A DNA stretch of 64,000 bases from an uncultured Planctomycetaceae bacterium. Its GTDB lineage: Bacteria; Planctomycetota; PLA2. The stretch's first letter is position 1. The number at the start of each line of letters is the position of its first letter. The DNA lies in NCBI GenBank assembly GCA_964570285.1, contig CAZMXP010000028.1, positions 74 to 64,073 on the forward strand, read 5' to 3'. Below are positions 52,382 to 64,000 of this stretch, one piece after another. The translations under genes were made by a program, and so were the position numbers. The notes under the pieces are model-generated. The model saw only the letters and a program-made list of their open reading frames with translations, had not been told where the DNA came from and ran no database searches.

Positions 52382-52416
52382 TTAAGAGTTTGTCCGACGA
52401 ATAGTCGGACAAACTC

Positions 52417-53949
52417 CTAGCCCTCAAGGTTAGCGGAGACGAAGTTGAGAATCACGCGTTGCATGCCCGCGACGCCCTCGAGCGTCCCCCGCTCCTGGAA
52501 GAAGTGGCCGAGCACGTGGGCGACCCGCCCCTTCCCGATCCCCTTCGTGAACGCGACCACCTCGCTGCCGAACCGCCGCTTCATCTCCGCGCTCGCGACG
52601 AGCACCTCCGCGCCGCCCGTCAGCCGGAAGAAGACGCTCTCGTCCTCGAGCCACCAGAGCAGCTTCTTCTTGCTGTCGAGCGCGCCCTGCAGGAGCCGGT
52701 GGCCGGGGACGGCCCCGGCGATCTCGACGACGACGTCGCGCTGGCGCGGGACGCCCTGCATCACGCGGACGAGATCGGGGAACGCGTCGGTGACGTAGGG
52801 CTCCAGCGCCCAGTCCGACGTCATCAGCCAGCCGCCCTCGCGCACGAACGCCGCGAGGCGCTCCGGCTCGAAGCCGAGCGGCGCGCGCCCGCAGTTCACG
52901 AAGAGGATCTGGTCGGGCCGCAGCGTGCGTCCCCGCAGCCCCTCGACGACGGTGTGCGGCACGCCGAACACGTCGAGCACGACCTCGATGCGGTCGAACA
53001 AGCCCTTCACGACGAGGACGCGGTCCTTGGCGATCGCGCGGATCTTCTGCAGGCCGTCGCCGAAGCCCTGCGTCGCGAGCTTCGCCGCGGCGCGTTGGGC
53101 CGTATCCGCGTCGGCCGGGAGAGGCGTGCCGATCTTGCCCAGCCCGAGGATCGGCGCGGTCAGGTCGGGGCGCTCCTGCTCCGGCGGCGGCTCGTCGACC
53201 GGGTCGGGCTCCTCGGGCGGCGTGTCCTCCGCGAGGGCGCGTTCGATCAGCGAATCCTCGGGGGGCAGGTCGGGCAGGTCGGGCTCCTTCTCCTCGAAGA
53301 GCACCGGCGGCGGCAGCGCGAGATCCACGGTCGCGTGGAGGAGGGGAGGGTCCGGGAGGGGGGCGGCGGCGCCCGTGACCAGATCGAGCAGGAGCAGCAG
53401 GATCGCGTGGACGACGAGCGACACGGCGTACCACGGCGCGCTGCGGACCAGCGTTCTCAGTTCCGTCGCGAAGTCGGGGTCGACGGGCTCGCGCACGCGC
53501 AGCGCGAGGCGGTGGCGGAGGCGGTCGAGCGCGCCGTCGGGCAGCGTCATCGCGCGCAGCGACGCGACGTCGTCGAGGAAGGGGACGAGCGCGGCCGTCC
53601 CCCGGTCGAGCAGCAGGCGGGCCGTGCCGAGATCCGCGCCGAGCATCGACGCGACCTCGTCGAGGGGCACGCCGTCGAGGTCGTGCAGGACGAACGCGAT
53701 CGCGGGCGGGTCGGGCAGGCGCGCGAGCTCCTTGCGGAACGGCAGGATCCTGCCGCCGCGCTCCCGCAGGGACTGGAGCGCCCGGGCCGCCACGGCGCGT
53801 TGCGGCACCGGCGCCGCCGCCCTGTCGCGCGCGACCAAGCGGTGGAGATCGGCGACGATCCCCTCCGCCTCGGCGGCCGACCCGGTGATCCGGAGGGCCA
53901 GCAGCAGGAGCGCGTCGGATCGCGGGAGCATGGCGTGGTCGGGGGTCAT
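52417..53949 (-). CDS. Membrane protein with an N-terminal sigma-70 region-4-like HTH, one TM helix and a C-terminal ThuA/class-I glutamine-amidotransferase-like domain (anti-sigma/regulator-like)
   Basis: HTH LPDPPAIAFVLHDLDGVPLDEVASMLGADLGTARLLLDRG; TM AVSLVVHAILLLLLDLV; a Pro/Glu-rich linker. Start uncertain (Met at 53949 or 53931). Confidence 0.5.
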   Translation of the reverse strand: MTPDHAMLPRSDALLLLALRITGSAAEAEGIVADLHRLVARDRAAAPVPQRAVAARALQSLRERGGRILPFRKELARLPDPPAIAFVLHDLDGVPLDEVASMLGADLGTARLLLDRGTAALVPFLDDVASLRAMTLPDGALDRLRHRLALRVREPVDPDFATELRTLVRSAPWYAVSLVVHAILLLLLDLVTGAAAPLPDPPLLHATVDLALPPPVLFEEKEPDLPDLPPEDSLIERALAEDTPPEEPDPVDEPPPEQERPDLTAPILGLGKIGTPLPADADTAQRAAAKLATQGFGDGLQKIRAIAKDRVLVVKGLFDRIEVVLDVFGVPHTVVEGLRGRTLRPDQILFVNCGRAPLGFEPERLAAFVREGGWLMTSDWALEPYVTDAFPDLVRVMQGVPRQRDVVVEIAGAVPGHRLLQGALDSKKKLLWWLEDESVFFRLTGGAEVLVASAEMKRRFGSEVVAFTKGIGKGRVAHVLGHFFQERGTLEGVAGMQRVILNFVSANLEG

Positions 53950-53982
53950 CAAGCGCCTAGACAGGCTATACTCGAAAGCGGG

Positions 53983-54738
53983 ATGCGCCGCCTCGCACCG
54001 CTGCTCGCCCTGCTCCTCGGGGCGGTTGGGCTCCTGCCCGCCCCGCCGGCGGCGCATGCGCGTCCGGAGTTCGCCCGGCGCGAGGTGAAGGCGTGCGGCT
54101 ATTGCCACATCAACCCGCGCGGCGGGGGCCCGCGCAACGACAACGGGCTCCTCTACGCGAGGAGCGAATTCTCGTTTCCCGTCGTCGCGGGCAACCTGGG
54201 CAGCTTCCGCAAGGATGCCGACCGCGAGCGCATGGTCTACGCGCGCAAGATGATCGACCTCGACCACATCCCGGCGGCCATCGACGGCCTCGCCCGCCTG
54301 TCGAAGGTCGTCAAGGACGAGGGGGCGAAGAAGCTCGTCGAGGAGGAGATCCACGGGATCGAGGTGCGCGGCAGCAAGATCCTCGGTCAGGCGCGGCTGC
54401 TGCTGCGCGGCAAGCCGCAGGAGATCGACGAGGGGGTCGAACTGGTCGTGCTGCTGGTCACCGAATACAAGGGGCTCGCGATCCACGAGGAGGCGCTTGC
54501 CGACCTCAGGGAACTGCGGGCCGACAAGGAGCTTCGCGACCGCGTGCGGAAGGAGGAGGCGGAGGCGAAGGCGCGCCTGCTGCTGCTCGACGCGACGCGG
54601 CAGGACTCCGACGGGAGCCGCGACAAGGCGAAGGCGACCCTCGACAAGCTGATCAAGTCCTCTCCCGCCTCCCGCGCCGCGGAGGAGGCGAAGAAGCTTC
54701 TCGAGGAGTGGGCGAAGCCCGCCCCCTCGGGAGGATGA
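53983..54738 (+). CDS. Secreted protein with an N-terminal CxxCH heme-binding motif and a coiled-coil C-terminus
   Basis: Signal peptide MRRLAPLLALLLGAVGLLPAPPAAHA and motif EVKACGYCHINPRGGGP. Confidence 0.5.
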   Translation: MRRLAPLLALLLGAVGLLPAPPAAHARPEFARREVKACGYCHINPRGGGPRNDNGLLYARSEFSFPVVAGNLGSFRKDADRERMVYARKMIDLDHIPAAIDGLARLSKVVKDEGAKKLVEEEIHGIEVRGSKILGQARLLLRGKPQEIDEGVELVVLLVTEYKGLAIHEEALADLRELRADKELRDRVRKEEAEAKARLLLLDATRQDSDGSRDKAKATLDKLIKSSPASRAAEEAKKLLEEWAKPAPSGG

Positions 54739-55209
54739 GCGGGCGCCCGGCGACCGTCCTCGGTTCGGCCGCCACGCCCATGATCAGCCTCGCGTCCGCC
54801 GCGGCGCATGCCGGCGCACGCGGCCGCCGGGCGATCTAGTGCGCGGTGATCGGGTTCGTCCCGTTGTGCCTGCTGACCATCGCGGAACTCCGGGGACTGG
54901 CCGTGATCGGACTCGGCCTCGCTGCACTCGCCGGGCTGCTCGCGCACCACGACCGGAGGTACGCAGCGCAGAACGGGCGCGCGGTCTCCCGCTCGGCGGC
55001 GCGCGCCGCCGAGCGCCGACGGCGCAGCGGCCTGCCGCCGGAGTGGGTCAGCGTCTACGAACCCAACAACCGCCCGACGCCTCCCGCGATGCGGGCTGCG
55101 CAGTCCCCCCTTGCCGAGGATCGCGCGCGGGATCGGCCGGACGGGTGAACGAGTGCCACCAAAACCGAGAGACGCAAGGGCGCCTTCGTGCCGCGCGGCC
55201 CGCACTCTG

Positions 55210-55565
55210 TTCGACGAGTGGGACCGAGTCTCGAAGGGTGTTCGGGTCTCGGGGACGAACGCGTTCGGAGGCGCGCGAGGATGTTGCCGCGCGCGCCCTT
55301 CTGGGTGCAGTGGACCACAGCCTTCGTCTTGAGCCGGGAAGAAGGAACCCAGGAACCTAGGAGCCGAGGAAGAGGCGGACTCGATCCATCCGAGTCCCGG
55401 GATGCTCCCCTCTGCTCTCATGGGTTCCTCCCTTCCTGGCTCCCTCATCAAGAGAGCCGCTACGCACGATCCGGAACGGCCGAAGGCCGTCGCGAGGGCG
55501 CGCAGCGCCCGAGGCTTGTACTACGAGCCCGCAGACTCCGCGCTGCCTGCGCACATTCGGGTGCT
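55210..55565. repeat. Intergenic repeat family, copy 3 (full length)
   Basis: About 90% identical to 7505..7855. Lies immediately upstream of the large HEAT-repeat gene. Confidence 0.8.
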
Positions 55566-55660: not shown

Positions 55661-57940
55661 ATGCGTCGGGCCGTCGTGCTGCTGCTCGTTTCCGTGGCCG
55701 CGGCGGACACGGACCCCTCCGCCCTGGCGATGGCCTACCTCGCGGATCCGAGGCCGTCGCACGTCGCGTTGAGCGAGGAACTTCGGTCGTCGGCCCCCGA
55801 GGCGGCTCCGCGCATCGTCGAAGGGTGGGCCACCGACGACCCGAAGCGCCTCGAGCGCATCGAGTACTTCTTCAAGCGGACCTACATGACAAGGATGCGC
55901 GACGCGATCGTCGCGGGGATGAGGCATGCCGACCGCCGCGTCAGGATTCGCGCCGCCCTGTTCCTGGTGCGCGAGGCCGACGCGGGCGCGCCCGCTCCCG
56001 ATGCGTTGGCGGTCTCGATCCTGCACGCCGCCGTCGGGGAGAGCGAGGCTGCGCTGCGCGACGCCGCGATCGAGGCGCTCAGCGCGCTCGGGCTTGCCGC
56101 GGACCGCGTCGTTCCGGTCCTCCTCGAACTGCTGCTGGCCAGCACGGGCGAGGTGCGGTTGCGCGCGATCGAGGCCTTTCGCGCATACGGACCCAAGGCG
56201 GCGGCCGCGATCCCGGCCCTTGCCGAGCGCGCCGCGCGGGAGCGGGAGGTCTTCGCGATCGAGGCGGTGCGCTCGCTCGCCTACCTCGGTCCGGACGGAT
56301 TCGCGCCCATCCGGCAGTGCCTGGATCGGCCTGAGCCGGAGCTGCAGTACTGGGCCGTCCGCGCGCTCGGGGACAGCGGAACCAACGGCCGGGGCGCCGT
56401 CGATCGTCTCGTCGAGATGGCGCAGCGTCATGGGACGAAGGCCGAGGTGGCAGCGCTCGACGCCCTGGTCCGGATCGCGCCGGAGGAGGGGCGGGTGCAA
56501 GCCCTCGTCGCAGCCGACCTCGCGAGCGGCGACGCGGTCCGCGTCCGGCGCGCCGAAGGGATCGTCACGCACGAGAAGATCGGCCGCCACTTCGTGGAGC
56601 CGAACCGGGCCCTCCTGCGGGCCCCGCGCGCTGCGACCCGCGTCCGCTCGGCGCGGATCCTCGCCGGGGCGGGGCTCGCGCGCGCCGAAGTCCTCGCGGC
56701 GATGACGGAGGTGGCTCGGGGCGAGGAACTCGCCGACCAGGCGCTCGAGCTCATCGGCGAGTTGGGACCGATGGCGGCGGACGCGTTGCCGCAGCTCTGT
56801 GCCAGAGTCGGCACCCAGCGTCAACTCCACGGGCCGCTCGGCCGTTGCGCGGCCGGCATCGGAACGGCTGGCCTCGACGCCCTGGCGGGTGCCCTGCGCC
56901 ACAAGGACAAGGAGACCCGCTTCGCGGCGCTCGTCTGCCTTCATGGTTTCGGTCCCCTCGCGAAGCCCGCCCGCGCGGGCGTCGCCAAGCTTGCCCAGGA
57001 TCCCGATCTCGCGGGGGCCGCGAACGCGGTGTTGCGGTCGATCGACGGCGACGCGATCCCCGAGCCGAGCGAACAGCTCTCCCTCGACTCGCTCGCCCAC
57101 GACGATCCTCGCCTCCGTCGACTCGGCGTCGACCGACTCCGCGGCAAGGGCTATTCGCCGCTCAGGCCCCAGATCCTCGCGAGCCTCGAACAAGCCGCGA
57201 AAGAGGACGCCGACGAGGTGACGCGTGCGGGAGCGCTTCGTGCGTTGACCGACATGGTGGACGCGGACCGGCTGATCCCGATGGTGCGGCACGCGCTCGA
57301 AGCGGGACGGTCGAACGAGGCCCTCGAGATCCTCGTGTATGCCGCGCGCGACCTCGGCCCCGCAGGGAGGGTGCTGCAGCCGGACCTCGAACGTCTCCTC
57401 TCCCGCCAGGAGCCCCCCGTCTTTCCGATCATGCTGGTTCTTGCCCTCTATCCGGACGCCGCCGACCGCTTGCTGGCCCGACTCAAGGCGGCGCCGGAAC
57501 ATGAGCGCCAGGTCATCGTGGTCGGGCTCGGCCACTCTTCGATGAGTCACACCGACCCCGTCCGGCGCGCGCTCTTCGACCAACTCTTCGACGATCCCTC
57601 CGAGATCGTGCGCGGCGCCGCCTTCGATGCGCTCTGGCGGGTCGGCTCCCCGCCCGAGGGACTGCCGAGGGTGCTCGCCGCACTCGAGAAGAAGTCGGAA
57701 CCCCGGTTCACGAGCGCGCTGATGGCCGCGGGAGGCTACCCGCAGGCGTACGGCCAGATCGCCCCCCACCTTCTGCCGCTGCTCGACAAGCCTGCGCGGC
57801 AGCAGTTGGTGCTTGTCACCCTTGGGCGGTGGGGAAGTGCGGCGAAGCCTGCCCTTCCGCGCTTGCGCAAGATGAGGAAGGCCGCGACCGGCGAACTCAA
57901 GGGCCTCCTCGACGAGGTCATCGCGGAGATCGAGGGCTAG
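55661..57940 (+). CDS. Large secreted HEAT/PBS-lyase repeat protein (759 aa)
   Basis: Signal peptide MRRAVVLLLVSVAAA, then more than 15 HEAT-like repeats. Confidence 0.7.
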   Translation: MRRAVVLLLVSVAAADTDPSALAMAYLADPRPSHVALSEELRSSAPEAAPRIVEGWATDDPKRLERIEYFFKRTYMTRMRDAIVAGMRHADRRVRIRAALFLVREADAGAPAPDALAVSILHAAVGESEAALRDAAIEALSALGLAADRVVPVLLELLLASTGEVRLRAIEAFRAYGPKAAAAIPALAERAAREREVFAIEAVRSLAYLGPDGFAPIRQCLDRPEPELQYWAVRALGDSGTNGRGAVDRLVEMAQRHGTKAEVAALDALVRIAPEEGRVQALVAADLASGDAVRVRRAEGIVTHEKIGRHFVEPNRALLRAPRAATRVRSARILAGAGLARAEVLAAMTEVARGEELADQALELIGELGPMAADALPQLCARVGTQRQLHGPLGRCAAGIGTAGLDALAGALRHKDKETRFAALVCLHGFGPLAKPARAGVAKLAQDPDLAGAANAVLRSIDGDAIPEPSEQLSLDSLAHDDPRLRRLGVDRLRGKGYSPLRPQILASLEQAAKEDADEVTRAGALRALTDMVDADRLIPMVRHALEAGRSNEALEILVYAARDLGPAGRVLQPDLERLLSRQEPPVFPIMLVLALYPDAADRLLARLKAAPEHERQVIVVGLGHSSMSHTDPVRRALFDQLFDDPSEIVRGAAFDALWRVGSPPEGLPRVLAALEKKSEPRFTSALMAAGGYPQAYGQIAPHLLPLLDKPARQQLVLVTLGRWGSAAKPALPRLRKMRKAATGELKGLLDEVIAEIEG

Positions 57941-58174: not shown

Positions 58175-60313
58175 CTACGCCCCCCACCCCAGCGCGAGGC
58201 CGCCCTGGTAGACGAGGAGGCTCCCGACATAGGCGAGCACGGTCATGTATCCGAACATGAAGAGCGGCCAGCGCCAACTGTTGGTTTCGCGCTTGACGAC
58301 GGCGAGGGTGGACATGCACTGGCAGGCGAGCACGAAGAAGACCATCAGCGAGACCGCGTTGAGCCAGGAGAAGCGCGGCCGGCCGTCCGGCCCCCGCGCC
58401 CCCCTGAGCTTCTCCCGCAGGGCGGGCGACTCCTCGTCGGCGTCGCCCACGCTGTAGACGATGCCGAGCGTCGAGACGAGCACCTCGCGGGCGGCGAAGC
58501 TCGCGATGACGCCGACGCCGAGCTTCCAGTCGAAGCCGAGCGGCTCGATGGCCGGCTCGATGAAGCGGCCGAGCCGCCCCGCGAAGCTCTGCGCGATCTG
58601 CTCGCCCGCCTGCCAGTGTTCGACCTCCTCCGCCGCCTCGCCGGCCGCGACCCGCCGCTGCGCCTCGGACGCGATCGCGCCGCTGCGCGGGAAGTAGGCG
58701 AGCACCCAGAGCACCACCGAGATCGCGAGGATGATCGTGCCCGCCTGCGTGACGAAGACGCGCGCCCGCTGGAAGACCGTCGCGAGCACGTGGCGCCACG
58801 CGGGCAGCTTGTAGGAGGGCAGTTCGAGGATGAAGGTGCTCGCCTCGCCCCGGAAGAGCGTGCGCCGAAGCACCCACGCCGCGAGCAGCGCCACCGAGAC
58901 CGACAGCGCGTACATCGCCAGCAGCGTCGTGCCCTGCCACGCCTCGGGGATGAACGCCGCGATCATCAGCGCGTAGACCGGCAGCCGCGCGCTGCACGAC
59001 ATCAGCGGCGCGACGAGGATCGTCACGAACCGGTCGCGCCGGCTCTCGATCGTGCGCGTCGCCATGATGCCCGGGATCGCGCACGCGAACGACGACATCA
59101 GCGGGATGAAGGCCTTGCCGTGCAGCCCGACGCCGCGCATCAGGCGGTCGACGAGGAACGCCGCGCGCGCGAGGTAGCCGACGTCGTCGAGCAGCGTCAG
59201 GAAGAGGAAGAGCAGGCAGATCTGCGGCAGGAAGATGACGACGTTCCCGACGCCCGCGATCACGCCGTCGACAAGCAGGTCCGCCAGCATGCCGTCGCCG
59301 AGCAGCCCTCGCACCTGCGCGCCCACCCAGCCGGTGGCCGCCTCGATCGCGTCCATGAAGGGCGTCGCCCACGCGTAGACCGCCTGGAAGAGGACGCCCA
59401 TGACGATCAGGTAGAGCAGCGGGCCGAGCACGCGGTGGGTCATCACGCGGTCGATGCGCTCGGAGGGGGAGGGGCCCGGGGAGGGGGAGAGTTCGCGCGC
59501 GCCGCGGGAGATGTCGTTGCAGAGCGCGTAGCGGCACTCCGCCTCGAGCGCGGTGCGGTCGATGCCGGCGAGGCGGAGCGCCTCGCGCGCCCGGTCGAGG
59601 GCCCGCCGCAGCGGTTCGCCCCCGCGGTTCAGGAAGGGGTCGTCGTCGCGGCCGTTGGAGATGAGCCTGAGCGCCTCGCCCTCGTCCGCCTCGCGCGGCA
59701 CGATCGCCGCGGTGGAGACGGCTTCGCGCAGGCCCTTCAGCGCGTCCTCGCCCGCCGCGGGCATGCACCAGATGCGCCCGGGCGCCCGGGCGCGGCCGAT
59801 CGCCTCGCGCAGCGCCGCGACATTGCGGCCCGTCCGGGCGACGACCGGCACCACCGGCACGCCGAGCGCGCGCTCCAGCGCCTCGGCCGAGACCGGCACG
59901 CGCGAGCGCTCCGCGACATCGACCATGTTCAGCGCGACGACGAGCGGCAACCCGGTCTCCATCAACTGCGTCGCGAAGTAGAGGTTGCGCTCGAGGTTGG
60001 TCGCGTCCACGACGGCGAGCACGACATCGGGGCGCGCGCTGCCGGGCACGAGGCCGAGCAGCACGTTGCGCGCGATGCGCTCGTCCTCGGAGCGGGCGTA
60101 GAGGCTGTAGCAGCCCGGCAGGTCGACGAGGATCGCCTCGCGCCCCCCCGGCAGCGCCATCCGGCCCTCGACGCGTTCGACGGTGACGCCGGGGTAGTTG
60201 CCGACGCGGCGGCGCAGTCCCGTCAGCGCGTTGAAGAGCGTCGTCTTGCCGCTGTTCGGGTTGCCCGCGAGCGCGACCGTGAGCGACCCGCGAGCCGTCT
60301 CAGGCGGGCTCGA
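58175..60313 (-). CDS. feoB: Ferrous iron transporter FeoB (probable TTG start overlapping the feoA end)
   Basis: N-terminal G-domain (VALAGNPNSGKTTLFN, DLPG, NMVD) and a C-terminal polytopic membrane domain with FeoB gate motifs. Confidence 0.85.
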   Translation of the reverse strand, partial: SSPPETARGSLTVALAGNPNSGKTTLFNALTGLRRRVGNYPGVTVERVEGRMALPGGREAILVDLPGCYSLYARSEDERIARNVLLGLVPGSARPDVVLAVVDATNLERNLYFATQLMETGLPLVVALNMVDVAERSRVPVSAEALERALGVPVVPVVARTGRNVAALREAIGRARAPGRIWCMPAAGEDALKGLREAVSTAAIVPREADEGEALRLISNGRDDDPFLNRGGEPLRRALDRAREALRLAGIDRTALEAECRYALCNDISRGARELSPSPGPSPSERIDRVMTHRVLGPLLYLIVMGVLFQAVYAWATPFMDAIEAATGWVGAQVRGLLGDGMLADLLVDGVIAGVGNVVIFLPQICLLFLFLTLLDDVGYLARAAFLVDRLMRGVGLHGKAFIPLMSSFACAIPGIMATRTIESRRDRFVTILVAPLMSCSARLPVYALMIAAFIPEAWQGTTLLAMYALSVSVALLAAWVLRRTLFRGEASTFILELPSYKLPAWRHVLATVFQRARVFVTQAGTIILAISVVLWVLAYFPRSGAIASEAQRRVAAGEAAEEVEHWQAGEQIAQSFAGRLGRFIEPAIEPLGFDWKLGVGVIASFAAREVLVSTLGIVYSVGDADEESPALREKLRGARGPDGRPRFSWLNAVSLMVFFVLACQCMSTLAVVKRETNSWRWPLFMFGYMTVLAYVGSLLVYQGGLALGWGA

Positions 60314-60581
60314 CAAGGATCGTGCGCGCCTCGGATCGCCGCAGGGAGACGTGGTAGCCGTGCAGTTCCACCTGCATCGGATCCCCGAAGGGTGCGAGGC
60401 GGACGACGCGCACGACGGTGCCGGAGACAAAGCCCATCTCGAGCAGGCGACCCCGGACCGGCCCCTCGCCGGCAATGGCCTTCACGCGCGCACAGGCTCC
60501 CGGCAGCGTGCGGTCGAGCGTGCCGACGGCGACCGCCCCATCCCGGATGAGGGCCCCCTCGGGGAGTCGGATCTGGATCAT
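60300..60581 (-). CDS. feoA: Ferrous iron transport protein FeoA
   Basis: 93-aa SH3-like FeoA (LLEMGFVSGTVVRVVR...). Confidence 0.8.
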   Translation of the reverse strand: MIQIRLPEGALIRDGAVAVGTLDRTLPGACARVKAIAGEGPVRGRLLEMGFVSGTVVRVVRLAPFGDPMQVELHGYHVSLRRSEARTILVEPA

Positions 60582-60614
60582 CGCCGTCCTCTGCTCTCGA
60601 CCGCCGTCTTGAGA

Positions 60615-60631
60615 TTGAGACTGAGTCTCAA
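60615..60631. promoter_or_regulatory. 17-bp perfect palindrome TTGAGACTGAGTCTCAA, a candidate operator upstream of feoAB
   Basis: Perfect dyad 34 nt upstream of the feoA start. A near-identical dyad lies at 62256..62270. Confidence 0.55.
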
Positions 60632-60690
60632 GAAAGCATAGGCCACACCGCGCGCCGGCGCAAGAGGCGGCCTTGTCGGCGCCGCCGCCG

Positions 60691-60951
60691 TCATCGGCGC
60701 GCCCTCGCGGTGAGGTAGTCCTCGACCAGGGCCTGCTCGGAAGCCGAGAGGCGCGCGCGACGCCCGTACTTGCGCACGTAGAAGGGCCACTCCTCCGCGT
60801 CGTACGAGGAGGGCATGAAGAGAGCGTGGCAGCGCTGGCAGGAGGTCTCGTAGAGCGCGCGGCCGTCGCGCGGGCCCGCGTCGCCCTCCGGGGCGCCGCC
60901 GGTCGTGGCGCACGCGGCCGCGAGCAGGAGGATCAGAAGAAGCTTGCCCAC
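60691..60951 (-). CDS. Small lipoprotein monoheme c-type cytochrome (GTG start overlapping the upstream OMP gene by 19 nt)
   Basis: Lipobox LLLAAAC and a CxxCH motif (SCQRCH), 86 aa. Confidence 0.5.
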   Translation of the reverse strand: MGKLLLILLLAAACATTGGAPEGDAGPRDGRALYETSCQRCHALFMPSSYDAEEWPFYVRKYGRRARLSASEQALVEDYLTARARR

Positions 60952-62231
60952 GAGATCGTGAAGATGTCGGCCGCGCCGCCGCCAAAGCCGGCCTGCTTGC
61001 TGTCGACGAAGGTGTAGTCGATCTTGAAGACCGTGCGCTCGACGGGGCGGAAGTTGAAGCCGATCGAGATGGAGTCGAGGTCGTCCCGGAACGTGCTTCC
61101 CGACGTCAGGTGGTTGAGGTCGATCCCCTCGATGCGCACGACGAAGGTGAAGGTGCTCTCGTCGGTGAAGAGGCTGTGGGAGCCGCGCCAGGCGTCGGGG
61201 AAAAGGTGGTAGGCGAGTTCCACGTACCAGCCGTCCATGCGCCGGGGCTCCGACGCCGCCGCAACGGAGGGCTGCTCGATGCGGAGGTTCATGTACTCCC
61301 CGCGGAACTCGAACTTCCCCTCCTTGAGGAAGAGATCGAGCCCGTAGCCGTAGTTCGCGAACATGCCCGCGTCGTCGTGCTTGCCGTGCGTGAGGGAGAC
61401 GCCGACTTCGAGCGCGTCGAGCGCGCGCAGCGGCACGGCGAGGACGAACCGCCCGAAGACCTGCTTGTTGTTGTTGTTGTCCGAGCGGAAACTCTGCCGG
61501 CTGTCGCGCACGCCGCCGTTGGTCGAGAAGCCGTCGTCGAACCCCTGCACCAGCGCGAGGTCGTAGTCGAGGAACCAGCCGGCCACCGGTTCGAGCGTGC
61601 CGTCGATGGCGACGCCGGGCTGGTCGAACGCGACGGCGCCGACGCGCTGCGACACGAGCGGCCGGTCGGTCAGGTCGTTCAGCGGATCGTCGTGGACCGA
61701 GTTGAACCGGCCCCACGGCACGAGGATCAGCCCCGCGCGGAAGTTGAGCTTGCCTTCGACGATCTCGAAGCTGAGCTCGGCGTACTCGACGAGCACCTCG
61801 TTCCCGTCGAGGAAGTCCACGTCCGCCCCGCCCCCCTCGATCTCGATCTCGGTCTCGAAGGTGATGCCCGGCGCGACGTCGGCCTGGATCTTCGGCACGA
61901 GACGGTGCTGGTCGAACTCCATCGTCGAGGCGTCGCCGTCGTCGCGGAACTCGAGCGAGAAGTAGCCGCCCACGCGCACGCGGCCTCCGAAGAGCGCGCC
62001 GGCGCCCTTCGAGGTGGGCCGCTCCGGCTCGGCCTCCGTCGCGTCAAGGTAGGCCTGGATCTCGCTTTCGAGCGCCGCACGGTTCTGTCCCCGGAGCCCC
62101 TGGACCTCGCCCCGGAGCTGCTCGATCAGTTCGCCCTGCTTCCGCACCGTCTCCTTGAGCCCTTCGAGCGACTCTCCTGCGACGGCGAAGGCGGCCAGCG
62201 CCATGACCATAGTGATCGTTCGTTCCATCAT
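60933..62231 (-). CDS. Outer-membrane beta-barrel porin-like protein with an N-terminal coiled coil (OprO/P-like)
   Basis: Signal peptide, a coiled-coil segment (LEGLKETVRKQGELIEQLRGEVQGLRG), beta-strand alternation and a C-terminal ...SWASFF. Confidence 0.7.
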   Translation of the reverse strand: MMERTITMVMALAAFAVAGESLEGLKETVRKQGELIEQLRGEVQGLRGQNRAALESEIQAYLDATEAEPERPTSKGAGALFGGRVRVGGYFSLEFRDDGDASTMEFDQHRLVPKIQADVAPGITFETEIEIEGGGADVDFLDGNEVLVEYAELSFEIVEGKLNFRAGLILVPWGRFNSVHDDPLNDLTDRPLVSQRVGAVAFDQPGVAIDGTLEPVAGWFLDYDLALVQGFDDGFSTNGGVRDSRQSFRSDNNNNKQVFGRFVLAVPLRALDALEVGVSLTHGKHDDAGMFANYGYGLDLFLKEGKFEFRGEYMNLRIEQPSVAAASEPRRMDGWYVELAYHLFPDAWRGSHSLFTDESTFTFVVRIEGIDLNHLTSGSTFRDDLDSISIGFNFRPVERTVFKIDYTFVDSKQAGFGGGAADIFTISWASFF

Positions 62232-62255
62232 CGTCGGCAGGGGTTATACTGAAAC

Positions 62256-62270
62256 TGAGACTCAGTCTCA
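62256..62270. promoter_or_regulatory. 15-bp palindrome TGAGACTCAGTCTCA followed by AGAAA, a candidate operator upstream of the OMP/cytochrome operon
   Basis: Same half-sites as 60615..60631. Lies 25-40 nt upstream of the OMP start and about 100 nt upstream of the divergent ferritin-like gene. Confidence 0.55.
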
Positions 62271-62366
62271 AGAAAAAGAGCCGGACGGGGGGCGGGGGGG
62301 CCGACGCGCACCGGGTGCCGTCCTTGACACCCCCCCCCAAACCCCTAGTTTGTGGGTTTCGCGGCC

Positions 62367-63101
62367 ATGACCCAGAGCAAATCGATCCGGACCCGGGGGG
62401 AGATGACCCCGGAGTACCGCGCCCTGCTCGCGGCGATGATCCGCAGCCAGGCCTACCGCGAGCTTGCGGCGGCCACGGTCTTCGCGGAGGCGCTCGTGCT
62501 GGTGCCGACCGTCGCCTTCAAGAAGAAGGTCGTCCACCACGTCGAGGAGGAGATGGAGCACTTCGAGGACTGCTGCCGGGTCTACGGGCTGCTCGACGAG
62601 GGCGATCTCGACGCGATCTGCACGACGCGGCTGCGCGAGGAGCGCCCCATCCCCCGGATCGACTCCTTCCTCGACCTCGGCGTCGCGCAGTTCCTCTACG
62701 ACCGGGCGTCGGGGTATCAGCTCCGCGAGTACGAGAACAGCTCCTTCGACCCCTACTGCCGCATCATCGGGAAGATCCTCGAGGAGGAGGAGGGGCACGA
62801 GAGCTTCGGCGCCGAGGTGATGATCGAGCACTGCCGCGACCCGAAGCGGCGGCCGGAGGCGCAGCGTTCGTTCGAGAAGTGGCTTGCGGTCTCGCTCAAG
62901 TCCTTCGGGCGCCCGTCGAGCGCGAAGAACCGCGACGCGATCTCGGCGGGGCTGAAGACCCGCGGCTCCGCGGCCGTCGCGCAGGACTATCTCGACTCGC
63001 TGAAGACGGTGATGCGGCTCTGCGGCCTCGTGTTCCCGAGCCGGGAGCGGCTCGGCGAGGCCGGCGTCGAGACCGCGCCCGACGTGGACCTCTCGTTGTG
63101 A
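62367..63101 (+). CDS. Ferritin-like diiron-carboxylate protein (PaaA/PaaC-like four-helix bundle)
   Basis: Two ExxH pairs (EEEMEH and EEEEGH) plus additional E residues spaced as in diiron oxygenases. Confidence 0.55.
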   Translation: MTQSKSIRTRGEMTPEYRALLAAMIRSQAYRELAAATVFAEALVLVPTVAFKKKVVHHVEEEMEHFEDCCRVYGLLDEGDLDAICTTRLREERPIPRIDSFLDLGVAQFLYDRASGYQLREYENSSFDPYCRIIGKILEEEEGHESFGAEVMIEHCRDPKRRPEAQRSFEKWLAVSLKSFGRPSSAKNRDAISAGLKTRGSAAVAQDYLDSLKTVMRLCGLVFPSRERLGEAGVETAPDVDLSL

Positions 63102-64000
63102 AGACCGCGGCGGCGCCTTCGCTGCTCTTCACGCCCCTCCGCATCGGCCGCCTCGAACTCCCCAACCGGATCGTGCTCCCCGCGATGGTGACGCGCCTCT
63201 CCGGCGAGGACGGGTTCGTCAACCGCGCGATCCGCGACCGGTACGTGCGGCACGCCCGGGGCGAGCCCGGCCTGATGGTGCTCGAGGCGATGGGCGTGCA
63301 TGCGGCGAAGAGCGGTCCGCTGCTGCGCGCGAGTGGCGACGAGTACGTGCCGGCGCTGTCCGACCTGCTCGCGGCCTGCCGCGCCGTCTCCCCCACGCGC
63401 CTCGCCGCGCAGATCATCCACTTCCTGAAGATCAGCCGCAGCGGCTGGCGCCAGACCGTGATGGACCTCGATCGCGAGGCGATCGCGAGGATCGTCGAGG
63501 ACTATGGCGATGCCGCCGCGCGCATCCGCGACGCGGGATTCGACGCGGTCGAACTGCACATGGCGCACGCCTACACGCTCTCGTCCTTCCTTTCGCGCAG
63601 GAACCTCCGCCGCGACGAGTTCGGCGGTCGCGCGCTGGAGAACCGGCTGCGCGTCCCCTCGATGGCGCTCGAGCGCGTGCGCGAGCGCGTCGGCGCGGAC
63701 TTCCCGGTCGGCATCCGCTACGACGGCGAGGAGGCCATCAAGGACGGCTACAGCGTCGCCGACGCGACCTCGATCGCGGTGCGCTTCGCGCGGCTCGGCG
63801 CCGACTACCTGTCGATCTCCGCCGGCGGGAAGTTCGAGGACGCGATCCACGTGAAGGGGGAGCCGCTCTACCCCTACACCGGCTACAGCGGCGACCGCTG
63901 CATGCCGAGCGCGAACTACCCCGACGGCCTCAACGTCTACCTCGCCGAGGGCATCCGCGCCGGGCTCCGCGCGCGCGGCCTCGCGACCCCGGTCGTCACG
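63098..64000 (+). CDS. Old-Yellow-Enzyme-family NADH:flavin oxidoreductase (partial, runs off the right edge)
   Basis: GTG start overlapping the previous stop (GTGA). Translation FTPLRIGRLELPNRIVLPAMVTR...HMAHAYTLSSFLS... matches the OYE TIM-barrel. No stop before the window end. Confidence 0.7.
   Translation, partial: MKTAAAPSLLFTPLRIGRLELPNRIVLPAMVTRLSGEDGFVNRAIRDRYVRHARGEPGLMVLEAMGVHAAKSGPLLRASGDEYVPALSDLLAACRAVSPTRLAAQIIHFLKISRSGWRQTVMDLDREAIARIVEDYGDAAARIRDAGFDAVELHMAHAYTLSSFLSRRNLRRDEFGGRALENRLRVPSMALERVRERVGADFPVGIRYDGEEAIKDGYSVADATSIAVRFARLGADYLSISAGGKFEDAIHVKGEPLYPYTGYSGDRCMPSANYPDGLNVYLAEGIRAGLRARGLATPVVT

Follow-up and report, generated by a model that had tools for sequence, protein, structure and literature searches.

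Two palindromes that share the same 15-bp sequence in a planctomycete genome fragment, one upstream of feoAB and the other upstream of an operon encoding an outer-membrane porin and a c-type cytochrome, raise the question of which regulator acts at both promoters. The fragment analyzed here (hereafter, the window) is a 64,000-nt stretch of contig CAZMXP010000028.1 from an uncultured Planctomycetaceae bacterium (assembly GCA_964570285.1); its G+C content is 70%, and its encoded proteins point to Planctomycetota. Judged from their sequence, architecture, conservation, and genomic neighbors, the two dyads, here called box 1 and box 2 (Table 1), are very probably Fur operators of feoAB and of the porin/cytochrome c operon, respectively. 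The initial annotation of this DNA had proposed a shared operator in an iron regulon and had named a Fur-family protein among its candidate regulators; that proposal is supported, and a Fur-family protein is the best candidate.

Table 1. Predicted operators, promoters, and genes at the feoAB and porin/cytochrome c loci (positions in the window)
Feature	Position	Strand	Details
Box 1, predicted Fur box	60615-60631		TTGAGACTGAGTCTCAA; perfect 17-bp dyad TTGAGACT-G-AGTCTCAA; feoAB promoter
Box 1, 19-bp three-hexamer form	60611-60629	+	GAGATT-GAGACT-G-AGTCTC; two overlapping 7-1-7 sites, offset 6 bp
Box 2, predicted Fur box	62256-62270		TGAGACTCAGTCTCA; perfect 15-bp dyad TGAGACT-C-AGTCTCA; porin/cytochrome c promoter
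Box 2, 19-bp three-hexamer form	62251-62269	+	GAAACT-GAGACT-C-AGTCTC
Putative feoAB promoter	60635-60663	-	-35 TTGCGC (60663-60658), 17-nt spacer, -10 TATGCT (60640-60635)
Putative porin promoter	62243-62271	-	-35 TTGAGA (62271-62266), 17-nt spacer, -10 TATAAC (62248-62243)
Terminator-like G+C hairpin	60643-60663	-	After the cytochrome c gene; overlaps the putative feoAB -35 and spacer
feoB	58175-60316	-	Pfam FeoB_N, Gate, FeoB_C
feoA	60300-60581	-	Pfam PF04023, E = 7.9e-21
Small lipoprotein monoheme cytochrome c	60691-60951	-	One CXXCH, lipoprotein signal
Outer-membrane porin, N-terminal coiled coil	60933-62231	-	Porin_O_P-like family of Planctomycetota
Putative divergent promoter	62324-62329, 62346-62351	+	TTGACA, 16 nt, TAGTTT; conserved in orthologous loci
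Divergent PaaA/PaaC-like di-iron gene	62367-63101	+	PaaA_PaaC (PF05138), ferritin-like family

Both dyads were recovered where they had originally been placed, and each is followed on the plus strand by AGAAA. The distances to the flanking genes are 33 nt from box 1 to the feoA ATG (60581, minus strand), 24 nt from box 2 to the porin ATG (62231, minus strand), and 96 nt from box 2 to the ATG (62367) of the divergent PaaA/PaaC-like gene. The exact 15-mer has two copies in the window, both in promoters, compared with an expectation of 2.4e-4 copies under uniform composition or 2.8e-5 copies after adjustment for 70% GC. When three or fewer mismatches were allowed, the window yielded 6-nt-shifted overlaps of both dyads (60610-60624 at box 1, 3 mismatches; 62250-62264 at box 2, 2 mismatches) and one site at 55219. 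The shifted matches expose a third hexamer on the gene-proximal side of both sites, and the GTTTCA hexamer of box 2 is retained in the orthologous locus L001. The site at 55219-55233, TGGGACCGAGTCTCG, matches the dyad with 3 mismatches and lies upstream of a HEAT-repeat gene (55661-57940); it is at chance level for the window and was set aside as a probable chance occurrence.

Both sites consist of a 7-1-7 inverted repeat with TGA...TCA ends plus a third hexamer, a layout related to TGATAATnATTATCA and GATAATGATAATCATTATC. The initial annotation had seen no resemblance between the dyad and the canonical Fur box, which proved to be wrong. Aligned in register with the Escherichia coli Fur consensus GATAATGATAATCATTATC, box 1 matches at 12 of 19 positions and box 2 at 13 of 19, with the same hexamer layout, compared with 6 of 19 or fewer in other registers. 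The classical E. coli and Pseudomonas aeruginosa box admits two readings, one as hexamers in the order F-F-x-R and the other as a pair of 7-1-7 repeats (TGATAATnATTATCA) that overlap. Like this box (GATAAT-GATAAT-C-ATTATC), the window sites have the same overall length, a 7-1-7 dyad, TGA...TCA ends, and a third hexamer at a 6-bp offset, and one of them occupies the promoter of a classic Fur target, feoAB. Unlike it, their half-site is GC-richer, GAGACT instead of GATAAT (TGAGACT versus TGATAAT), with G replacing T at position 4 and C replacing A at position 6.

Boxes described from other bacteria share these arms. TTGAGA...TCTCAA arms are common to the window sites, the Xanthomonas campestris Fur box AATGAgAATcATTctCATT (PMC1790865), and the 9-1-9 box of Caulobacter and other alphaproteobacteria, ATTGAGAACCATTCTCAAA, which is one of two Caulobacter Fur sites, together with TTTGAGAATGGTTCTCAAT, that were validated by electrophoretic mobility shift assay (PMC2724300). 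Exact Xanthomonas-type cores are present in orthologous planctomycete sites (TGAGAATCATTCTCA in L003 and TTGAGAATGATTCTCAA in L248), and the 9-1-9 extension taTTGAGACTnAGTCTCAAta occurs, as in the alphaproteobacterial box, in many of the matches listed from the genome scan described below. By comparison of sequences, such arms are those of a known Fur-box type of high-GC lineages. The planctomycete sites differ from proteobacterial boxes at half-site position 6, where about half of the planctomycete half-sites carry C, and among the matches listed, the form with C throughout is concentrated not in Proteobacteria but in Planctomycetota, Verrucomicrobiota, and Acidobacteriota. Departure of a feoAB operator from the GATAAT consensus also has a precedent, the feoAB1 operator bound by Fur of Magnetospirillum gryphiswaldense (4RB1 series; PMC4506495), although the half-sites there are of the TTGCAAAT type.

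At both operons, the box also meets a conserved core promoter, as read from putative promoter hexamers. At the porin/cytochrome c promoter, the left arm of box 2 coincides with the putative -35 hexamer; the porin promoter of locus L003 has the same geometry (TTGAAA-17-TATGTT). At feoAB, box 1 starts 3 nt (TTC) after the putative -10 hexamer and covers the predicted transcription start. No base of the feoAB -35 hexamer varies in the alignment, and in the relatives a -10 hexamer of the form TAnnnT stands 17 nt downstream of it (TACACT in L001 and TAGAAT in L004). Both boxes would thus overlie core promoters of iron-acquisition genes. Since the terminator-like hairpin between the cytochrome c gene and feoA splits the region into two transcription units, each operon has its own box.

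We compared the box regions across seven independent porin loci (the window, L001/L002, L003, L004/L005, L246, L247, and L248), in which porin protein identity ranges from 44 to 100%. A box was found just upstream of the porin gene in all seven, and a second box upstream of feoA in each of the four loci with feoA (the window, L001, L004, and L246); at these orthologous promoters the box is retained while the flanking intergenic DNA diverges. Variants in orthologous loci (TGAGACTGATTCTCA, TGAGAATGAGTCTCA, TGAGAATCATTCTCA, TGAAACTGAGTCTCA, TGAGAATGGTTCTCA, and TTGAGAATGATTCTCAA) give a clade consensus of TGAGA(C/A)T-n-A(G/T)TCTCA, with the palindrome lengthened by T and A at its ends. Of the 26 half-sites in the synteny-defined set, 14 have C at position 6, 11 have A, and 1 has T. 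The AGAAA flank, which had been regarded as an element shared by the two sites, is kept only in the closest relative (85% identity) and is probably not part of the operator.

The same variants bear on whether the dyads act in RNA, as a 5'-leader hairpin or terminator, or constitute a repeat of the REP type. Box 1 is probably within the transcribed leader, and a stem of 6 to 10 bp can be drawn, but the predicted folds are weak and the two sites fold differently (z = -1.9 and -1.5; folds as good arose in 12 of 200 shuffles), and there was no Rfam match. In most variants (e.g., TGAGACTGATTCTCA, TGAAACTGAGTCTCA, and TGAGAAGCAGTCTCA), one arm alone is altered, without compensation, a pattern that fits two protein-contacted half-sites and not an RNA stem. 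The occurrence of just two copies in 64 kb, both in promoters, is likewise unlike a dispersed repeat, and we consider an RNA-level or repeat element highly improbable.

If the dyads are Fur operators, the motif should recur beside iron genes elsewhere. A scan for TTGAGACTNAGTCTCAA in one genome per species (185,579 species) returned at least 120 loci, counts that represent a sample in no known order; simple arithmetic gives a chance expectation of about 140 matches, spread across all taxa. By record title, the matches listed include at least 62 from Planctomycetota, 18 from Verrucomicrobiota, 15 from Acidobacteriota, 3 from Gemmatimonadota, 3 from Omnitrophota, and 15 from other groups, with at least 4 more whose title gives no group. 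Planctomycetota, Verrucomicrobiota, and Acidobacteriota each account for merely a few percent of species. The regulon had initially been pictured as small and lineage specific; instead, the same box is found across all five of the named phyla.

Neighboring genes at the listed loci were searched by tblastn with window proteins and reference sequences. At a minimum of 21 loci, feoB is found no more than about 1 kb from the box and reads away from it, and at 11 or more, a Fur-family gene starts 12 to 80 nt from the box. The 11 box-fur loci belong to Acidobacteriota (3), Omnitrophota (3), Planctomycetota (2), Latescibacterota (1), a spirochaete (1), and a further metagenome-assembled genome (1). 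A box upstream of fur in five phylum-level groups is a signature of autoregulation. At L141, L169, L197, L212, and L229, which represent several phyla, feoB directly follows fur behind the box, a gene order that gives the regulator and its main target the look of a single autoregulated unit.

An unbiased Pfam tally of the 272 open reading frames (ORFs) flanking boxes in the listed loci gave a similar picture, with at least 14 matches to FeoA, 12 to FUR, 12 to the TonB-receptor Plug domain, 10 to FeoB_N, 5 each to heme oxygenase and Phosphonate-bd, 2 each to FTR1 and BFD, and 1 each to Ferritin, ZnuA, and AhpC. The commonest neighbors among the matches listed are feoA, fur, TonB-dependent receptors, feoB, and heme oxygenase. 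A pattern search with a tally of downstream genes had been suggested as a check in the initial annotation, and its outcome is strongly iron themed, with fur itself included. The motif thus recurs upstream of iron-uptake and iron-storage genes and of fur in genomes of the phylum and allied phyla; for the source genome, recurrence was examined within the 64-kb window. Of the three boxes in a high-GC planctomycete locus (L230), one precedes a ferric-type ABC transporter, and distant homologues of the window porin (33 to 38% identity) in L132 and L215 also lie behind a box.

These distributions, together with conservation, dispose of the idea that the matching palindromes are coincidental. The small copy number in the window would be compatible with it, but by chance a window should hold about 3e-5 to 2e-4 exact copies, relatives keep the box at both positions, and taxonomic and functional enrichment among the matches listed is strong. 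Chance is already refuted by the conservation data, and its probability is negligible.

Proteins of the DUF1559 (SBP_bac_10) family and proteins with an N-terminal methylation motif were also among the commonest box neighbors (at least 9 DUF1559 and at least 10 N_methyl ORF matches, L126 to L245). Their presence may reflect the abundance of such paralogues in Planctomycetota, or some members may be iron regulated. Clusters of the 15-mer were additionally seen on contigs classed as viral (L030, 8181-8243; L104, 165, 1267, and 1289; L011, 1178, 3571, and 3645). In L030, three boxes fall inside 63 bp, with the same extra hexamers as in the window (GAGATTGAGACTCAGTCTCAG). Such clusters could stem from bacterial DNA that was wrongly classed, from the borders of prophages, or from phage genes under the control of host Fur. 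As seen with the 15-mer on viral contigs, 14 specified bases give a pattern too little specificity for scans of whole collections.

We then considered which protein would read the box. Eleven Fur proteins encoded beside a box in other genomes, two of them from Planctomycetota, were aligned using E. coli numbering (L131, L135, L141, L169, L173, L195, L197, L205, L212, L229, and L236). All retain intact DNA-reading and metal-sensing residues: Arg57 is invariant and Tyr56 is kept, as are both regulatory metal sites (H33/E81/H90/E101 and H87/D89/E108/H125) and the four zinc cysteines of the Cys4 site. In Fur-DNA crystal structures, Arg57 reads a conserved G, Tyr56 contacts thymines, and Lys15 reads minor-groove shape (PMC4506495); the base-reading Tyr56 and Arg57 of Magnetospirillum Fur are thus shared with the Fur proteins beside the box. 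The closest solved relatives of the latter are Fur and Mur proteins, including DNA-bound Magnetospirillum Fur, and the best PDB match is Rhizobium leguminosarum Mur (5FD6/5FD5). Unlike E. coli Fur, all 11 carry Arg at the position of Leu52, in the first turn of the recognition helix (motif SRATVYRT). It is possible that this Arg52 may relate to the G/C-richer half-site, a suggestion drawn from the alignment.

Control by another Fur-family paralogue (Zur, Mur, PerR, Nur, or an Irr-like protein) that senses zinc, manganese, peroxide, or heme has some points in its favor, as 7-1-7-type sites are common to all Fur-family proteins, the nearest solved relative is the Rhizobium Mur, and one ZnuA and one AhpC gene are among the neighbors listed. 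The neighbors are overwhelmingly iron genes, however (feoAB, TonB-dependent receptors, heme oxygenase, FTR1, BFD, and the ferric-type ABC transporter), and the single ZnuA and single AhpC genes stand against dozens of iron genes among the 272 ORFs of the matches listed, so that no target theme of Zur, PerR, or Mur emerged there. The adjacent regulators scored higher against E. coli Fur than against Bacillus subtilis PerR in 12 of 12 cases, and both Fur regulatory metal sites are kept. A paralogue with another signal, including the Zur, Mur, or other metal regulator that had been suggested at first, is unlikely.

In some lineages, iron control has moved from Fur to regulators of the DtxR/IdeR or Rrf2 (RirA/IscR) type, and a non-Fur iron regulator of this kind would be compatible with a window that encodes no regulator. 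However, among the matches listed, DtxR and Rrf2 are outside the 25 commonest neighbor families on either side of the box, whereas FUR ranks second on one of the two sides and within the first five on the other. The sequence itself agrees with known Fur boxes, and neither DtxR nor IscR gave a tblastn match in the window. We regard such a regulator as very unlikely, and Fur remains the favored protein.

Several observations weigh against the assignment of the two dyads to Fur and temper its strength. A fur gene was not found in the 64-kb window, so that the identity of the regulator is inferred from other members of the phylum. Specificity for iron versus manganese is not readable from sequence, given that the best PDB match is a Mur protein. 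The promoter hexamers were read from intergenic alignments, and a consensus promoter scanner called no promoter at its thresholds; it missed the porin promoter because the -10 hexamer ends in C. The counts from the genome scan carry the sampling limit given above. Finally, sites with three or fewer mismatches elsewhere in the 856 kb of fetched loci numbered 21, compared with 20.8 in shuffles. Because loose matches are at the level of shuffles, the size of the regulon is not estimable from weak sites, and no regulon was built on them.

With Fur as the regulator, the arrangement suggests a simple mode of action. When iron is sufficient, a dimer of metal-loaded Fur would bind each TGAGACT-n-AGTCTCA dyad, and a second dimer would probably occupy the overlapping site made with the third hexamer. 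Fur on box 2 would block the -35 hexamer and spacer of the porin/cytochrome c promoter, and Fur on box 1 would block the transcription start of feoAB; RNA polymerase would be kept off both promoters because the boxes cover core promoter elements. When iron becomes scarce, Fur would leave the DNA and both operons would be expressed.

The genes behind the boxes fit the names that they had been given. The identity of feoAB was confirmed by Pfam. The feoB gene probably starts with TTG at 60316, by analogy with L001, and would then overlap feoA by 17 nt, as it does there. The window porin had no Pfam match of its own, yet many of its 139 homologues carry Porin_O_P (PF07396), as does the distant homologue in L215, and the family is Planctomycetota-wide, in agreement with the original label of outer-membrane protein. 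The start of the cytochrome c gene overlaps the porin stop by 19 nt. Its single CXXCH and lipoprotein signal bear out the cytochrome c label, and its Pfam matches, to DHC and Cytochrome_CBB3, are weak. In 7 of 7 loci, the protein keeps the lipobox and the single CxxCH, together with a conserved core, GRALYExSCxRCHALxMP...EWxxxVRKYGRRARL. The porin/cytochrome pair (60691-62231, minus strand) is itself kept in 7 of 7 loci (the window, L001, L003, L004, L246, L247, and L248), while its downstream partner varies: feoAB in some, Peptidase_M75 plus DHOR in L003, and none in L247 and L248.

From its gene content and conservation, the porin/cytochrome c pair looks like an undescribed outer-membrane iron-entry module. 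In Francisella, the outer-membrane protein FupA is paired functionally with FeoB in iron entry under iron limitation (PMC4905997), and a predicted Fur-controlled porin beside feoAB would follow the same logic. The likeness is one of function only: FupA is unrelated to the porin, and Francisella has no counterpart of the lipoprotein monoheme cytochrome c to which the porin here is coupled translationally. A further, joint reading is more speculative, and we think it doubtful as a whole. In its first part, the GAGACT half-site could be a distinct Fur specificity class, as opposed to drift of the consensus, that is common to Planctomycetota, Verrucomicrobiota, Acidobacteriota, Gemmatimonadota, and Omnitrophota and is possibly tied to Arg52. 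In its second part, the pair could be a Fur-controlled porin/lipoprotein-cytochrome module that feeds either FeoAB or an imelysin/di-haem-oxidoreductase pair.

The divergent gene on the other side of box 2 had been labeled ferritin-like, with the dyad about 100 nt upstream of it. The label holds, as its PaaA_PaaC match places it in a ferritin-like di-iron family. Control by box 2, on the other hand, is probably absent, because a conserved putative promoter of its own lies about 55 bp from the box. The intergenic region between the porin and this gene (62272-62366) contains long homopolymer tracts, one G-rich (about 62288-62301) and one of nine C residues (62330-62338) in the spacer of the divergent promoter; the C and G runs are retained in several relatives. 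Such homopolymer runs could vary in length and alter promoter spacing. The PaaA/PaaC-like gene heads a conserved operon-like block (62367-64000, plus strand, in the window; 4169-9873 in L001) in the order PaaA/PaaC-like, Oxidored_FMN (from near 63098 in the window), short-chain dehydrogenase, enoyl-CoA hydratase, and acyl-CoA dehydrogenase, and this block is always divergent from the porin. Elsewhere in the window, at 52405-54783, two nearly full-length ORFs occupy opposite strands of the same 2.3 kb, both with high G+C at third codon positions; the minus-strand ORF matches Sigma70_r4_2.

Binding of Fur to a promoter-overlapping dyad is a textbook mechanism, and the finding therefore extends known biology rather than altering it; what is new is its occurrence in a poorly studied phylum. 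In open-access papers and preprints, we found no description of a Fur box or Fur regulon of Planctomycetota and allied phyla, and the exact motif matched only unrelated eukaryotic primers and sequences in the literature text. How these phyla regulate iron is essentially uncharted. With the consensus TGAGA(C/A)T-n-A(G/T)TCTCA, the prediction of iron regulons becomes practical for thousands of uncultured genomes, and the conserved porin/cytochrome c pair is flagged as a candidate for iron uptake.

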